A stretch of 64,000 bases of DNA from a phage: the sequence record NC_101838.1. The stretch is one strand, 5' to 3'. Both the position numbers and the translations under genes were made by a program. The notes below the pieces were generated by a model that saw only the letters and a program-made list of their open reading frames with translations, was not told the DNA's origin and did no database searches. Shown in pieces: positions 15,500 to 30,935 of the stretch. Position 1 is the first letter of the stretch; each line of letters starts with the position of its first letter.

Positions 15500-15960
15500 T
15501 CTAAAATGGATTTCCTCCTTTTGATATTTCACCGGGCTGGATATTTTAAAATTCTTAGAAAATCAGAAAATGGATCGAAAACTAAAATGGATTTTTCAGA
15601 GTAGGCGCGACAAGCTGAATAACTCATCCTATCGTTTGCACCATATTCCAGGCCACCATTATAGATTTCCCACACATGCTAACCTCCCTCTACTAGAACT
15701 TCCTCCACTTACCCTTGACCTTCTATGGTAACAATCTAACCGCTATCTTGAAGTTGCGGTGCAGCTTTCCAGGTACTCGATCTACTTTTCATTTCAGGGC
15801 TTGGATTTTCTGAAAATTTTTCTCGATAAATTTCTCAGTACTCGATCTGTTTTTCGTTTTCTGAATCGGATTTTCTGGAAATCGTTCCGGCTCTCAACCT
15901 GAAATTTTTGGGGACGAAATCGATTTTTCGTTTTCAGAAATGGATTTTTAAAATTTCTAT
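15500..15960. repeat. iteron-like direct repeat cluster (candidate replication origin or packaging-related site)
   Basis: Repeated AAATGGATTT, GGATTTTCTGRAAAT and ACTCGATCT...TTTTCRTTT units in a non-coding region. Confidence 0.55.
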
Positions 15961-16065
15961 ATGGGAATATTTTAGTGGATACTATTTTATAGTAAATTGT
16001 TACGGAGGGTAATTAGCGTGCTAATTAAATTTATTAAATGCGAGGAGTTCTCATTTAGAATCTTG

Positions 16066-16084
16066 AATGATAATCATTCTCGTT
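16066..16084. promoter_or_regulatory. Fur-box-like site
   Basis: GAATGATAATCATTCTC closely matches Fur consensus GATAATGATAATCATTATC. Confidence 0.45.
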
Positions 16085-16197
16085 TGCAGAATAACGGGCA
16101 GGCCCGGTGATTGTCTCCCGGCCCCTGTTGCCCCGGCTTGTTATTATAGTATCACACAGGACAAAGAAAGCAAGGATTTTTTGCATAAATTTTTAAA

Positions 16198-16216
16198 TGA
16201 TAATGATAACCGTTCT
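16198..16216. promoter_or_regulatory. Fur-box-like site (second copy)
   Basis: GATAATGATAACCGTTCTC; about 130 bp downstream of the first. Confidence 0.4.
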
Positions 16217-16473
16217 CATTTTATGCAGCGCTCATCCCTGGTGGTTGTCTCCCCCGTCACCGGTGCCTGCCGTCCTTTCGATAGGTATATTGTGCCACCT
16301 GTCGGGGCCGCTGTCAACACTTTTCAAAAAATTTTTCTAACCTGATGCGCTAACCGCTGCAACCTGGCGGGGCCAGCCTGGCAGGACCTAACTGACCAGG
16401 TGGGAGAGGGTGAAATCTTGCAAACCTGGTAGGCCCATGCTGTAGGGTAAACAATTGAAGAGGAGGTACAAAA

Positions 16474-17440: not shown

Positions 17441-17836
17441 ATGAATAAGAACGTACGCCGCATCATGAACGAACTGGCAAACGATGAAAAAATTATTGAT
17501 ATGCATTTGGTCAACATTTGCCGCCGTTGTGTAACATATAACAACCGCGCCGCAAAAGCGCGTGAGATGAACGCAAAAGGCACCTTAAAGCCCTTTCAGG
17601 TGGTTGTAAAATCTATAACTAGCGCAGCAGGCCAGGCGCAGGACCACAACAACGAGAGCGCTAATATTGATCCGTCTTACGTAATGAAACGGATCCGGAC
17701 TTGCAAGAATAAAGAGCAGGTATATAACGTCATAGATTGGCTGGACTCCCTGGGCGATGTGGTTTACAATAGGTTTTCTGCAGCTATCGAGATCCAGCTT
17801 GACAGATTGGACGGGAAAGTACTAAAAACTTATTGA
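17441..17836 (+). CDS. hypothetical protein
   Basis: AAAGGA RBS. Confidence 0.55.
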   Translation: MNKNVRRIMNELANDEKIIDMHLVNICRRCVTYNNRAAKAREMNAKGTLKPFQVVVKSITSAAGQAQDHNNESANIDPSYVMKRIRTCKNKEQVYNVIDWLDSLGDVVYNRFSAAIEIQLDRLDGKVLKTY

Positions 17837-17837
17837 G

Positions 17838-17883
17838 TTTATTTTTAGATGGCCTTGACACCAGGGCCATCAATAAAGTAAAC
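17838..17883 (+). promoter_or_regulatory. repeated palindrome/promoter element, copy 1
   Basis: TTATTTTTAGATGGCCTTGACACCAGGGCCATCAATAAAGTAAAC; palindrome GATGGCC/GGCCATC flanks a TTGACA box. Confidence 0.5.
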
Positions 17884-17916
17884 TAACCACAGTTGAGCGG
17901 AAAAGGAGGCTTAAAG

Positions 17917-18115: not shown

Positions 18116-18457
18116 ATGACTACTATGACCGCCTCAGAAAAAGCTATGCAGATCGCTGAACTGAAAAAACAGATCGCAGACCTTGAGAATAAGATCGATA
18201 ACTTTGAAATCGACGAGGACAAGTACGACGAAAACTATGATGAATGGTTAGACGAGATCTACGGCGAAATTATGATCGGAAACATTTCTTTTCTTCCGTC
18301 GCGTATCCTCAAGGAGCTAGATCCTATCGCTTACCGCTGCGGATTTAGCGACTACATCGACAGCCTGGATATTGAGGACGATGAAGAATACCAGGAATTA
18401 CAGACAGAGTTAGAAGAAGCAAAAGAAGAGCTTGCGGAGCTGGAAGAAAACGAGTAA
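18116..18457 (+). CDS. highly acidic coiled-coil protein
   Basis: AAAGGAGA RBS; Asp/Glu-rich sequence. Confidence 0.55.
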   Translation: MTTMTASEKAMQIAELKKQIADLENKIDNFEIDEDKYDENYDEWLDEIYGEIMIGNISFLPSRILKELDPIAYRCGFSDYIDSLDIEDDEEYQELQTELEEAKEELAELEENE

Positions 18458-18503
18458 GCTTATTTTTAGATGGCCTTGACACCAGGGCCATCAATAAAGT
18501 AAA
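18458..18503 (+). promoter_or_regulatory. repeated palindrome/promoter element, copy 2
   Basis: Same 46-bp element as 17838..17883. Confidence 0.5.
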
Positions 18504-18546
18504 CTTTATACTGTTAACACTGAACTAATGCATAGGAGTTAAAACC

Positions 18547-18792
18547 ATGGCAGCACTAATCACCAAATATTATGCCCCTACCAACACCAAAAGCGCCCGT
18601 ATCATGGTAAAAGGCTTCGGACGTAAAAAGGTGTACACCTGGGATTATGCCTTAGACATGGAAGACAACTACACCAACGCAATGACCGATTTTATTAATG
18701 AACTAAATAAGCAGATCTTGACAAGTTATAAAGTGACCGATATTGCTTATATAGGTGAAGGCGGGATCTGTTTTGTAGGCATTGTGAAATAG
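18547..18792 (+). CDS. hypothetical protein
   Basis: ATAGGAG RBS. Confidence 0.55.
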   Translation: MAALITKYYAPTNTKSARIMVKGFGRKKVYTWDYALDMEDNYTNAMTDFINELNKQILTSYKVTDIAYIGEGGICFVGIVK

Positions 18793-18840
18793 TTATTTTT
18801 TCGGTGGTCCTGGCTGCAGGGCCATCTATAAAGATAATTT
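18793..18840 (+). promoter_or_regulatory. degenerate variant of the palindrome/promoter element
   Basis: TTTTTTCGGTGGTCCTGGCTGCAGGGCCATCTATAAAGATAA. Confidence 0.35.
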
Positions 18841-25674: not shown

Positions 25675-25938
25675 ATGAAACGCCTTGATCAGCTCAAATT
25701 AGTTCAATATATGGCTTATCGTGTTCTTGAAGTCCAGAAAGGTAGCAAAAAAGAGGTTTGCGAGAAAGCTTATAAGATCTTCACTCGCAAAAAAGATGAC
25801 TGGATGCTGCGCCAGACTAAAAAGGCTGACATCTTGGGGTACCTGGAAGAAGAGATCCGCCTTGAAGAGCAAGAAGAGATCCGCCGTAGTGAGGCAGATT
25901 ATCAGGCAGCTTGGGAAAACTGGATGAGCAACAAATAA
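25675..25938 (+). CDS. hypothetical protein
   Basis: AAAGAGGA RBS. Confidence 0.55.
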   Translation: MKRLDQLKLVQYMAYRVLEVQKGSKKEVCEKAYKIFTRKKDDWMLRQTKKADILGYLEEEIRLEEQEEIRRSEADYQAAWENWMSNK

Positions 25939-26081: not shown

Positions 26082-26501
26082 ATGAACATTAAATCTAATA
26101 ATCCGGCATATAGCTTTGATAACGCTTTTTGTCACGGTCCGGCGGCGAAAGGATTCGAAATCGATGGTAAACTAATTATTGTCAATGTTGACGGGGAAGA
26201 GGTTGCAGTATATCCGGTGGCAGACGTAAAAAGCCGTTTACAATGCCGCATGGATGTTACCGCCTATCAGCTTGATCCGGTTCGCATAGTTGCCCTGGTC
26301 CTGGAAGAAGAAATTAAAGCCATGCACCATAGCAACAGGTTTATTGGTGACGCTCAGGATAATATGAAGGTGTGCCGCCATAAAGTTAATGAAGTGCTTA
26401 AAGAGTACGGCTATAAAGATCTTATGATCAAACGTGATGAAAAATTCCGCTACCGTAACGACCTGGCAAATCGGATTTTTGAAATATACGAATCATTATA
26501 A
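26082..26501 (+). CDS. hypothetical protein
   Basis: AAGAGG RBS. Confidence 0.55.
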   Translation: MNIKSNNPAYSFDNAFCHGPAAKGFEIDGKLIIVNVDGEEVAVYPVADVKSRLQCRMDVTAYQLDPVRIVALVLEEEIKAMHHSNRFIGDAQDNMKVCRHKVNEVLKEYGYKDLMIKRDEKFRYRNDLANRIFEIYESL

Positions 26502-26519
26502 TTTTTTAACTGAATTATC

Positions 26520-26546
26520 AAGGGGCTTAGCCCCTTTCTTTTTGTC
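26520..26546 (+). terminator. rho-independent terminator closing the plus-strand block
   Basis: AAGGGGC-TTA-GCCCCTT followed by TCTTTTT. Confidence 0.65.
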
Positions 26547-27464
26547 TGCTCTTCCCCCTACCATAAACGGCCCTACCTGGAAAGTGGAATAATTGACGAG
26601 CCATCAATCCCACACACTGTACAAACATACATGTAAAATAGCTATTGCATAACCTTTCATTGTGTGGTAGCGGTGCTATTTTTTACCAGTTTTCCTTCCA
26701 AAATTGCACGTAATGCAGCTATTGCATAAATTTTAACCTGATGCATATCTTCAATATCTTGTCAACAAATAAAAATTCTTATAAGTCATACACTTATACC
26801 CCCACAAAAGCGTTCTCTACGTGAAAAATCGGGCATAACTATAGCCGCCAGATCTCAGAATTTACGTACGCTCGCCATTCTATAGCCTGCTAAGTATTTA
26901 TTCCAACCATAGAATAATGGAATAGTCAATACCTGAATAAAATAATTATTCGTTTAAACTGCATAACATAAATCAGCTCAGGTGTCAACATTTTTCGTAA
27001 ACAGTCTTAAATTGTCACTGTGAGTTATCATAAACAGAGAAATCTTTAGTCGTCTAATGTTTACTGTACGTTACTATACTGACTGGAATCATTAGATGAC
27101 TAATAGAAAGATAAGAAATAATTAACGATACAATTATTTTACCTGTAACAATAAGGCAACTATGCAAACGAATGGCATGGCGCGACGGAGTCGCGACATA
27201 ATATAAAAGCAGTAACCATCACCCCCGTGATAGTTTGTCTGCAAACTATTAATCAGATCATAGTTGCCTTGTATTTAGTTAATCATGACATAACAAGCAA
27301 GGCAACTATAGATCTTCTAATAGTTGCCCTGCTTTTATATTATGTCATGCTAATTATAATCAGTGCGATTATTGTCATGCAAACGAATGGCATGGCTTAT
27401 CATCTCTGTGTAAACAATCTATGCGTGAACAGTGAAACATGAAATAATAACAGTCGTTATTGTG

Positions 27465-27520
27465 TCAAGTATTCCGATTGTGTCACCATTGTGTCTAAAG
27501 TGTCATATTGTGTCAGACAA
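27465..27520. repeat. four closely spaced ATTGTGTCA-type direct repeats
   Basis: ttattgtgtcaag, attgtgtcacc, attgtgtctaa, tattgtgtcagac in tandem. Confidence 0.5.
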
Positions 27521-27969
27521 GTTTTTCTCCTCTTTGTCAAGTGCTGCATGAAAAATTTACAAACTGGTATGGTAGCATTTTTGCGGACCTGTTTACATTC
27601 AGGAGTGTATGTATAATCCTTGTTGTGTGGGCGTTTATACGTCTGGACGGTCAGAAGTCTGCAGGTTAATATCTAATCTATTGGCTGCTAACTATATCCC
27701 ACACAAATGATAAGAAATATAATTGTTATATGCGTAAACTGTAACTCATGTTATCAATCCCTGTATGGATCGCCAGTGGTGCGCATAATGGGTATTATGT
27801 TAAATTGCCCGTAATGATAAAGGTTCTCACAATGATAGGTATTCTCATTCACCCTCACAAAATAGATTGCAAATGTTGTGCCACTGTGTGAACGGCCTCA
27901 CCTATTAATTTGCCTCACTGCCTCGATATTTGAGAATTATTATAAGAATGAGAAGTATTCCCATTCCGT

Positions 27970-28330
27970 CCGCCTGGCAGCACTCCTGTAGGTCCTGCAA
28001 GGACTCTAGCTTTCAGCTAGACCCTTCGGGCCTCCCTGTAGGTCAGGTCAAAATCGGGGTAGAATTGGGCCTATTCAGATATTTCTGGCTGACTCTTCAG
28101 GTCTGTGTGGGAAAAGCCAACCTCTCCGGCGGGGCAGGGGGATATCTGCGGGAAAATTGCAGGTCAATTAAAAAATTTACGTGGTATATGAAGCGCTCTT
28201 CAGGTAAGGCATGTATTATGGGATGAAACCCTCTTCAGGCAATGATATTTGTGGGTGTGATATTTGCTGGAAAGCCAGATATGACGGGACTCCCGGCGGG
28301 GCAGGGGTGGTACAGACAGGGAAAATATGA
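27970..28330. repeat. degenerate repeat cluster in non-coding DNA
   Basis: Recurring CCTGTAGGTC (x2), CCGGCGGGGCAGGGG (x2) and CTCTTCAGG units. Confidence 0.45.
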
Positions 28331-29005
28331 AGGATGTGGTTGGGTAGATTGATCAGACAGGTAGAGTATGGAATATGTTACAAGTATGTTAAATATGGAG
28401 GTTGAATATCTGTAGGATTTGTGTGTAAAATCAAAGACTTAAGTGGTGTTGTGGTATTTTCTATAAATAATTCAAGTTTAATAGGCAATATTTGTCTCTA
28501 TCCGCTTTGTGTGGTAAACAGATTCAGATTAGATTGGTTTACAAGTGTATACATAATATACAAATTAAAGATACAAGAAACCCCCCCTCCCCCCTTCGGC
28601 TACCATTCACCTTTTCCTCTGACTGGTACTTAAACACTTATTCAGACTCTTCAGGTTATCACCCATATATCATATGGCAGTGACTGGTGTCCTCCGGCCC
28701 CTCTTTCGTCACCCGTCCGCTTCGCCATGCTAATGCCATAGCTAATGGTTCGGTTGTTCACCCTGTTCACTCAGGTGTATCTCTATACCCCTTCAAACCG
28801 AAGAGAACAGAAAACCCGAATTACTCGGTAAAAGAAAAGAGAAGAACTTAATTTTATCAGGATAGGCAAGAATGTCAAGGTATGACTGCTCACTAAACAA
28901 GCAAACAGTCATGTGTGGGAGGTAAGTGATTGTGGTGGTAGGAAATTTAGTTGAAAGATGTGTTATAGGTGCTTCCAGCACTTTAGCCGGGCAGCTAATT
29001 GTGTG

Positions 29006-29221
29006 TCAGTCCAGCGGTTCATCCTCTACTTCACTGAAATCAATGTTCATGGTCTCTTCCCAACCATCGATCTCAGCACAAGAGTGGAGTTCTTTAGGGT
29101 TTACTCCCAAAGCCTCAGCAACAGAGTCTATATTTAACACCTCTGGCAGGTATGATTCATCGAATTCAAGGTAAATCAGGCCACGAGTGTTGTCAGCTCC
29201 ACCAAATATCTCTATCTTCAT
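29006..29221 (-). CDS. hypothetical acidic protein
   Basis: AGAGGAGA RBS. Confidence 0.45.
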   Translation of the reverse strand: MKIEIFGGADNTRGLIYLEFDESYLPEVLNIDSVAEALGVNPKELHSCAEIDGWEETMNIDFSEVEDEPLD

Positions 29222-30629: not shown

Positions 30630-30935
30630 TTATTCTACAGAGCGTTTGAACAGAATGTCTGCCTCGGACATGTGCTCAACCTCTTCTTCGATTTTAGCTC
30701 GACGTTTTTCAGCCTCATAGCGAATATCGAACTCGGTAGCCACCAGAGATTTGATGAATTTAGGAGAATACAGGTGATCCTGCTTCTCAACGAGAATGAT
30801 ATCCTTAATGGCATCTTTCAGATCTTTAATCTGAAGTTGGAGTTCCACCAGTTCTTCGATTGTCTTGCGAAGGCGATCACGCTCTGCAGTGTCAGAAGGA
30901 AGAGAGGTGAACAGTTCAACTTTAGATTTAGCCAT
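30630..30935 (-). CDS. coiled-coil protein
   Basis: Charged heptad-like sequence. Confidence 0.5.
   Translation of the reverse strand: MAKSKVELFTSLPSDTAERDRLRKTIEELVELQLQIKDLKDAIKDIILVEKQDHLYSPKFIKSLVATEFDIRYEAEKRRAKIEEEVEHMSEADILFKRSVE

Follow-up and report, generated by a model that had tools for sequence, protein, structure and literature searches.

Terminal repeats have been described in several relatives of the Escherichia coli myophage rV5. Korf et al. reported 'terminal redundancies of 458 bp' in phages EdH4 and HdK5 (PMC6563267), and a direct terminal repeat (DTR) of 459 bp was found independently in phage Gotham via two-fold read coverage (PMC7471380). KPP-1, of the genus Mydovirus, has a 514-bp DTR that was classified as T7-type by PhageTerm (PMC9862379). 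The 2013 paper on rV5, which treated the genome as circularly permuted, left a "non-coding" box unexplained (PMC3606486). Here we analyzed that box as the gap at 26547-29005 between two convergent gene blocks in a 64,000-nucleotide stretch of phage DNA (record NC_101838.1; hereafter the window). A megablast search with 26400-29100 matched 146 phage records, 96 of which covered at least 80% of the query at ~87-96% identity; nearly all are Escherichia Vequintavirus, and the window belongs to this genus of rV5-like phages. We find that the gap is the genome-end region of Vequintavirus, shown in joined (concatemer-junction or circular) form. This DTR and terminus core is already documented for close relatives; what appear to be new, as judged from the searchable literature, are a dif-type site for the host recombinases XerC and XerD inside the DTR, kept across the subfamily, and a promoter-driven, near-invariant block in the arm to its right. 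The best overall explanation of the locus, to which we assign a probability of roughly 0.55, is a T7-type terminus with cis-acting arms combined with Xer-mediated joining of the two DTR copies.

The position of the physical ends is indicated by several sets of records. In HdK5, the first 459 bases of the record are 100% identical to the last 459 bases and map to 27974..27516 of the window. The Gotham record annotates a repeat_region at 1-459 that corresponds to the same interval with the same boundaries. Among the matched GenBank records, breaks inside the gap recur at two positions, query 970 and query 1428. When the DTR (27516-27974) itself was used as a query, two copies, one at each end, were found in EdH4, ECP2309 and HdK5, and the records of Pr121LW, EcoIv14a_Aya, bov11CS3 and bov25_3 start exactly with it. 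At least seven records begin or end exactly at the equivalents of 27516 or 27974, indicating that the boundaries are fixed between isolates. Virions carry one DTR at each DNA end and the window contains a single copy; the window sequence is thus the joined form, in which the two terminal copies have been collapsed. Since 27516-27974 is the DTR, 27974 is the first position of virion DNA, which reads leftwards from there, and 27516 is the last. We aligned a comparison panel of 19 genomes with MAFFT (the right-arm block was also compared in 23 distinct sequences) and observed no indels in the DTR, with the DNA directly outside both boundaries being the most variable part of the region. Taken from these record comparisons, the assignment of the physical ends to the DTR inside the gap is very nearly certain.

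Inside the DTR lies a site with the architecture of a chromosomal dif: an 11-bp XerC arm, a 6-nt centre and an 11-bp XerD arm. A pattern with both arms fixed has one match in the window and none in 100 shuffles. We took the E. coli dif to be GGTGCGCATAA-TGTATA-TTATGTTAAAT and then confirmed this in the sequence of strain UTI89, where dif reads GGTGCGCATAATGTATATTATGTTAAAT; all 22 arm positions are equal to those of the phage site, which departs from dif only in its 6-nt centre. A 48-nt query spanning the phage site gave a single match in each of 5419 complete E. coli genomes out of 5426. The UTI89 match adjoins a Zot/GspD filamentous prophage, as expected of a dif occupied by an integrated phage. 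The dif-type site is present in all 19 panel genomes, at both HdK5 ends and in Gotham, the sole variant being one centre base in one genome, and the records of HdK5, YN3 and UPEC06 each contain two copies. This stretch is the most conserved of the DTR, and only two other islands of similarity connect the Vequintavirus and KPP-1 termini. We found no literature linking Xer or dif to Vequintavirus-type phages, subscription journals being outside the search.

Sites of this kind were found in ten further phage lineages, in which the XerD arm is invariant, the XerC arm has at most two changes and the centre is never TGTATA. In each of the three genera whose repeat is mapped (Vequintavirus, Mydovirus and Henunavirus), the site is located within the DTR, and Vequintavirus, Hena1 and KPP-1 all have it in the same orientation with respect to the repeat ends. 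The setting is also shared: the KPP-1 DTR sits in a 1.8-kb gap between convergent gene blocks, Hena1 combines convergent-gap architecture with a 519-bp repeat annotated at the start of its record, and PVP-SE1 has a 2.2-kb convergent gap. The repeat starts with G(A/G)CGGAC in Vequintavirus, KPP-1 and Hena1, and an end motif, GTCCGYC^TRRCA, is found 190-236 nt 3' of dif in six lineages. In PVP-SE1 (L275, around 2503-2745), GTCCGTC^TAGCAC occurs 235 nt 3' of the dif-like site, and from the conserved end motif a fixed DTR boundary is predicted in this phage. An open reading frame (ORF) in the DTR, 27748-27891, was compared with an ORF of the KPP-1 DTR and rejected as a shared gene, the match (E = 0.028 over 19 aa) reflecting the dif DNA common to both. 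Two large contigs, L161 (154,976 bp, at 276-399) and L185 (261,806 bp, at 1286-1420), each hold a dif-like site with perfect arms and a degenerate one ~100 nt away, so Xer sites may occur in other large phages. We also observed the KOPS-like motif GGGNAGGG three times in the gap against ~0.3 expected, at 28132 and 28299 (+) and 28585 (-). The copy in the G-tract of the right arm points to the XerD side of the dif-type site and the other two point away; given these mixed orientations, we do not rely on the KOPS idea.

The DNA that flanks the DTR is composed of variable repeats next to the cuts and conserved elements farther out (Table 1). The left boundary reads TGTCA^GACAAG on the + strand and the right boundary TGCCA^GGCGGAC on the - strand, so that the conserved sequence around one cut, TGYCA^GRC, is an inverted copy of that around the other. 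The left array consists of two families, GT(A/G)AAC(A/T)nT with a 15-16-nt period and (T/G)TGTGTCA with a 9-11-nt period, and ATTGTGTC occurs in it four times against 0.23 expected. Its copy number and length (112-219 nt) vary in the 19 genomes; the cores are retained, as is the TGTCA that ends the array at the cut. On the other side, the right junction is 47-132 nt long across the panel. A 50-nt cassette, which in the window holds a hairpin at 28005-28019, is present there in 7 of the 19 genomes, L139 additionally having it within a longer cassette, and in the window the hairpin loop has the reverse-complement sequence of that in the six other carriers. The two degenerate modules beyond this junction have weak similarity to the KPP-1 arm (E = 7.6e-4). 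Their motif CCGGCGGGGCAGGGG was discarded as an IMG/VR search pattern because it was too unspecific and returned high-GC phages, and a ~170-bp tandem module in the right arm was dropped since self-BLAST does not support a real duplication. Apparent right-arm insertions of 175 and 399 nt are explained by the way MAFFT placed the sequences and by a duplication in Escherichia phage I29 (L132, ON286975.1; panel coordinates 1389-2528), which is exact over 546 bp and has an inverted junction of 60 nt. The I29 duplication covers the equivalent of 27758-28370; faulty assembly or rearrangement of the terminus is its probable cause.

The left arm contains a branched palindrome. It is closed by a perfect 18-bp inverted repeat (27195-27212 / 27329-27346) and bracketed by 20-nt direct repeats at 27162 and 27377. 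The predicted single-stranded DNA fold has an energy of -55.7 kcal/mol (z = -7.9; sliding-window z down to -11.3), and this is the only part of the gap with exceptional predicted folding on both strands. The palindrome is near-invariant in 18 of the 19 genomes and absent in FV3 (L138), where the end points of the deletion relative to 27162-27376 of the window coincide with the 20-nt direct repeats ATGCAAACGAATGGCATGGC. KPP-1 has a palindrome of unrelated sequence but the same architecture in the same arm (z = -10.65). A model for duplication of the T7 terminal repeat uses a hairpin intermediate (PMC4281155, citing Chung & Hinkle 1990), and a comparable part for the left-arm palindrome may be suggested by analogy only. 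Outside the palindrome, the distal left arm (26547-27145) has 89-97% column conservation in the panel; it contains GCTATTGCATAA twice (26641, 26718) and a conserved 13-bp inverted repeat at 27047-27102.

Table 1 Features of the gap and its borders in the window, and centres of dif-like sites in other phages
Feature	Location	Strand	Details
Intrinsic terminator, closes + strand early-gene block	26520..26545	+	stem AAGGGGC-TTA-GCCCCTT, then T-run
Distal left arm, conserved non-coding	26547..27145		35% GC; no indels in 19 genomes
Branched palindrome	27146..27346		four GGCAACTAT sites, alternating orientation
Short-repeat arrays abutting left DTR boundary	27397..27515	+	last unit ends at cut TGTCA^GACAAG
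DTR, 459 bp	27516..27974		HdK5 ends, Gotham annotation, record boundaries
dif-type XerC/XerD site	27778..27805	+	GGTGCGCATAA-TGGGTA-TTATGTTAAAT; inside DTR, 0 mismatches to pattern
Variable junction outside right boundary	27975..28073		cut GTCCGCC^TGGCAG; 1-3 cassettes beginning CAGCACTCC
Two degenerate modules, each with CTCTTCAGG and CCGGCGGGGCAGGGG motifs	28074..28340		repeat families D3, D5, D7
AT-rich spacer, 240 bp, transcriptionally downstream of G-tract	28341..28580		30% GC; ~95% conserved
G-tract, then UUUCUU	28581..28595	-	C7TC6 on + strand; G5-7AG5-7 in relatives, 19-genome alignment
Near-invariant ~255-nt block, candidate early non-coding transcript	28590..28844	-	predicted start ~28844
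Sigma-70 promoter	28851..28878	-	TTGACA, 16-nt spacer, TGaTAAAAT; 11/12 consensus positions, extended -10
dif-like site centre	KPP-1 (Mydovirus)		CGTGTT
dif-like site centre	Hena1 (Henunavirus), inside annotated repeat		GGTGTA
dif-like site centre	PVP-SE1 (Seunavirus), site found by dif search		CGTGTA
dif-like site centre	two IMG/VR contigs		GGTGTA each
dif-like site centre	120,938-bp contig		CGTGTA
dif-like site centre	several other large phage contigs		various

We propose the following sequence of events at this terminus. At the concatemer junction, terminase would cut both repeat boundaries and DNA synthesis would duplicate the repeat, as in T7-type packaging, and the flanking arrays and the large palindrome would act as cis signals for the packaging cuts or for repeat duplication. 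After injection, host XerC/XerD would recombine the two direct dif-type sites, one in each terminal repeat. The expected products are a circle with a single repeat, which is the form seen in the window, and a 459-bp linear by-product. Because its central region is altered, the phage site would not recombine with the chromosomal dif in a productive way. The cyclization step is tentative, and we place it slightly below even odds. We are more guarded about the wider proposition that the Vequintavirinae join their ends via host XerC/XerD, with no phage integrase and with an insulated centre, and that Vequintavirus additionally makes a ~255-nt early non-coding RNA (ncRNA) of an undescribed family. 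Several points weigh against our explanation. For XerCD to recombine dif, FtsK at the septum is normally required, and no FtsK-gamma-like phage protein was found. An 87-aa ORF at 25675-25938, named 'DNA translocase FtsK' in several records, was rejected as a candidate because it has no FtsK Pfam domain, and BLASTP gave no alignment of it to an FtsK gamma-domain sequence (presumed to be that of E. coli). Phages with a T7-like polymerase and a primase-helicase can replicate as linear DNA and concatemerize via their repeats, so that a circle is not required; homologous recombination could also join the 459-bp repeats; and Xer action on concatemers would oppose packaging. The palindrome, being deleted in FV3, is dispensable at least in that phage. 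Finally, Xer action on these phages is inferred from sequence, the searchable literature containing no experiment on it.

Other functions of the dif-type site have to be weighed against cyclization. The established role of Xer sites is multimer resolution, at cer and psi for plasmids and at dif for the chromosome, and the phage site might likewise resolve or unlink replicated DNA, converting circular multimers and catenanes to monomers, instead of circularizing the incoming genome. It shares the 11-6-11 architecture of dif and psi, and one copy would be present at every concatemer junction. Resolution, however, needs no location in the DTR, yet the site is inside the DTR in all three mapped genera, and monomerization would counter the concatemer-dependent packaging; we consider this function improbable. 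The perfect copying of the host arms, together with a copy number that grows with replication, would also suit a decoy that titrates XerC/XerD or stalls FtsK and thereby disturbs dimer resolution or division, and a captured host fragment without purpose might look similar. Against both stands the fact that position, orientation and distance to the cut site are kept across genera whose repeats are otherwise unalignable, which points to a role in cis, and a short lytic cycle would gain little from blocked dimer resolution, so we judge this reading very improbable. We favor cyclization because the site is inside the DTR in every mapped genus, a placement that neither multimer resolution nor titration needs. 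Degeneration might account for the arms, if not for the DTR: many ORFs in them are broken, the arrays vary in copy number and FV3 lacks the palindrome, as would be expected of decayed small genes and slippage-prone spacer. Such non-functional remnants are scarcely credible given that two blocks are more conserved than the neighboring genes, that repeat cores are kept as copy number changes and that the palindrome architecture is retained in another genus without sequence similarity. We attach the least credence to descent from, or present life as, an element that integrates at the host dif via XerCD with the phage site as its attachment site. Filamentous phages and microviruses with dif-like sites do integrate in this way, the occupied dif of UTI89 being an instance, and our dif query also matched the 'left dif sequence' of TLC-Kn1 and microvirus records. 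But an invariant 325-nt phage block has no match in the 5,426 complete E. coli genomes, and thus no integrated Vequintavirus was seen among them, as is consistent with an insulated centre and a lytic life. The centre also differs from the E. coli TGTATA in every lineage examined, a centre that the hosts of the other lineages presumably share, and the phages are described as strictly lytic.

The right arm contains the second feature that appears to be new. A search for near-consensus sigma-70 promoters found 21 in the window against 2.3 +/- 1.4 in shuffles. Ten are on the + strand, all below 26.1 kb, and eleven on the - strand, all above 28.8 kb, each co-oriented with its gene block; the promoter at 28878-28851 is the only one without an ORF downstream. 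Its hexamers are invariant in the 23 distinct sequences, and its spacer has 8 substitution-variable positions and a 2-nt insertion in one sequence (L071). The block that follows has only 11 substitution-variable columns in the same 23 sequences, and the interval 28596-28950, comprising block, promoter and upstream DNA, is 96-99.7% identical across all 117 phage records. The block is 98.4% invariant, a value equaled or exceeded by 4 of 2080 other 255-nt windows in 50 kb that include the DNA polymerase and nrd genes, and three of these four adjoin the block. Conservation drops directly 3' of the G-tract. Scans of IMG/VR and JGI for the block returned only 9 loci, all near-identical; the block matches no Rfam family, shows no sign of an ORF or a PHROG and has no homologue in E. 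coli, nhmmer found none in KPP-1, and we found no literature on a Vequintavirus transcriptome or ncRNA. The predicted RNA fold of the minus strand has z = -1.97, compared with -0.51 for the plus strand, and pairs a 5' pyrimidine leader with the 3' G-tract. Of the 11 variable sites, eight fall in unpaired positions of this fold (P = 0.013; partition-function control P = 0.03), and one further site is an A-U to G-U change. The fold is, however, only slightly more stable than in shuffles, and variation is too scarce for covariation, which tells against the RNA element of our explanation.

The promoter at 28878 would make a ~255-nt non-coding RNA running towards the DTR, which may function as a trans-acting RNA or as a primer or activator for replication or end processing. 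A spacing-dependent terminase site is disfavored because the distance between block and DTR varies with the cassettes. The same variation would suit a genus-specific early RNA acting in trans, for example in host takeover or anti-defence, and unrelated to end processing. The promoter is strong, of early type and conserved in the manner of a genuine one, the block is among the most conserved in 50 kb, and the fold is predicted to pair the 5' and 3' ends with variable sites in loops; all this speaks for such an RNA. It is nevertheless somewhat unlikely, since a canonical terminator is absent, L127 and L128 have not retained the U-run that follows the G-tract, folding energy is modest both for the block and in 150-nt windows, and no Rfam family matches. 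Alternatively, the right arm might be an RNA-primed or transcription-activated origin, in which RNA polymerase would start at 28878, a hybrid or stall would form at the G-tract and synthesis would begin in the stretch with 30% GC. The order of promoter, invariant 255 nt, G-tract and 240 bp of 30% GC, with conservation ending exactly at the G-tract, fits this arrangement; the phage has a T7-like polymerase and a primase-helicase (PMC3606486), and cumulative GC skew peaks at ~29 kb. Yet the skew changes at the point where transcription switches direction, as noted by the rV5 authors (PMC3606486), no DnaA box with at most one mismatch occurs in 26547-29005, and no initiator gene adjoins the gap. 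The RNA downstream of the tract is G-poor, and KPP-1 has no homologous block, its equivalent arm being only 334 bp. Nor does the gap resemble an iteron or DnaA-type origin, as its repeats have 7-9-nt cores in variable number and spacing. We regard an origin as doubtful, and less probable than an RNA acting in trans.

An earlier sequence-only reading of the window had described the gap as a repeat-rich non-coding region between convergent transcription blocks and had listed four candidate roles, without choosing among them: structured ncRNAs, a second origin, a packaging or terminus site and a host-factor binding platform. This interpretation is partly supported. The description itself is accurate, the flanking ORFs ending at 26501 and 29006. 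The density of repeated 9-mers in the gap is 0.072, about twice that of 114 equal-sized windows of the same 64 kb (0.039 +/- 0.011), 2 of which are as high. Promoter-like sites are enriched as stated (20 vs 10.2 +/- 2.7 in shuffles), terminator-like sites proved enriched too (6 vs 2.1 +/- 1.5), and the noted G/C homopolymer tracts are real, for example C7TC6 at 28581-28595. That the gap holds no convincing ORF was upheld when small proteins were considered: 26 gap ORFs of at least 30 aa were checked for intactness in the 19 genomes, where most are frameshifted or stopped in most genomes, and those that are intact lie in near-invariant DNA, without a ribosome-binding site or third-codon-position bias. 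None of the five tested against PHROGs had a match. Comparison with relatives revealed blocks conserved across the panel. A terminus site proved to be the right choice, since the 459-bp DTR, and hence both physical ends, lies at 27516-27974, and a host-factor platform may be provided by the dif-type XerC/XerD site in the DTR, which that reading had not seen. Structured RNA is plausible for the minus-strand block 28844-28590, but not for the hairpin cited at the time, CTAGC-TTTCA-GCTAG. The hairpin is real (28005-28019); it is not a conserved RNA, because it belongs to a dispensable, optional cassette and its loop is inverted in the window. The proposed covariance-model scan gave no support, as Rfam 15 had no match in the whole window at gathering score. 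At E<=10, the gap had three chance-level matches only (E 1.7-9.9), all around the palindrome, and a tRNA/tmRNA scan found none.

The gap is bordered by ORF 26082-26501, the last on the + strand, and ORF 29006-29221, the last on the - strand. Both match PHROG families, and neither has an informative Pfam domain. The former (139 aa) is missing in FV3, APCEc02, Alma, JeffSchatz and HdK5, so the last + strand gene depends on the isolate. The terminator at 26520-26545 has annotated equivalents in HdK5, Gotham, Alma and Murica. Farther to the right, 114 records share a 101-aa protein (30630-30935, -) at 99% identity or more, and in other Vequintavirinae genera its identity is ~40-58%; annotated by some as a transcriptional regulator or dsDNA-binding protein, it is a candidate binder of the terminus repeats. 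A synteny walk to Seunavirus by means of this protein was abandoned because it is not close to the terminus in GAP31. On the left side of the window, a 49-nt repeat with a GC-rich hairpin and a TTGACA box occurs three times (17836-17884, 18457-18505, 18791-18839) and may be a terminator/promoter cassette between early genes. Three tandem repeats of 65-74 nt lie at 15763-15948, where GC is 0.40 and GC skew ~0 at 15-16 kb. The same side region (15763-16218) has AATGATAATCATTCTC motifs at 16066 and 16196, which resemble what we take to be the E. coli Fur box consensus, and its AATGATAnnnnTTCTCA motif also occurs twice in the DTR (27813, 27831). The KPP-1 arm contains ATGATAAnnnTTATCAT four times. 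Among the matched records, ~20 UNVERIFIED 'Campylobacter phage' entries (MG0656xx; for example L127, L128, L142 and L143) are rV5-like Vequintavirus, 85-94% identical to the window, and are probably mislabelled or contaminant assemblies.

The terminus assignment lets 'circularly permuted' records of rV5-like phages with arbitrary starts, rV5 included, be re-oriented. These phages are widely used in O157 biocontrol and are present in the BASEL collection, and for EdH4, editing and knock-down with the RNA-targeting Cas13a have already been applied (PMC9712115, PMC11879866). The right-arm block may represent a new phage RNA or an element of an origin, in a group of phages for which we found no published transcriptome. 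If the proposed joining of ends is true, exploitation of Xer, seen so far in small integrating ssDNA phages and plasmids, extends to large virulent tailed phages, and would offer a RecA-independent removal of free DNA ends, the target of RecBCD.

The terminus most resembles that of T7, in which both virion ends likewise carry an exact short repeat whose boundaries are fixed and which occurs once per junction, short-repeat arrays lie just inside the repeat and a promoter points to the junction. Here, in contrast, the phage is a myovirus of 137 kb that relies on host RNA polymerase for transcription, the repeat lies between convergent blocks with ~1 kb of non-coding DNA on each side, and it carries a host recombinase site that is absent in T7. 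The right arm can be compared, by analogy, with RNA-primed origins such as ColE1 RNA II, the T4 oriF and oriG R-loops, the T7 primary origin and the G-tract of mitochondrial conserved sequence block II (CSB II). Like these, it combines a promoter, a conserved and putatively transcribed sequence, a G-rich tract (G6AG7 here) and AT-rich DNA, but the element is absent from the sister genus Mydovirus. In P1, recombination by Cre between lox sites in the terminal redundancy circularizes injected DNA. The process proposed here would be analogous, with a direct site in each terminal copy permitting RecA-independent circularization. P1 encodes its own recombinase, however, and has lox in the redundancy of some virions, whereas here the enzymes would be host XerC/XerD and the site is at both ends of every virion. 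The Xer-dependent elements known as IMEX (CTXphi, TLCphi and gokushovirus prophages) also have an 11-6-11 dif-like site matched to the host Xer; those phages are small, contain ssDNA and integrate, whereas the present one is large and virulent, contains dsDNA and has the site in its DTR. Finally, cer, psi and dif share with the phage site the order of XerC arm, 6-nt centre and XerD arm, and the phage arms are those of dif. While cer and psi need ~180 bp of accessory sequence together with PepA and ArgR or ArcA, and dif needs FtsK, the phage site is set apart by a centre of its own, TGGGTA in Vequintavirus and NGTGTA in other genera.

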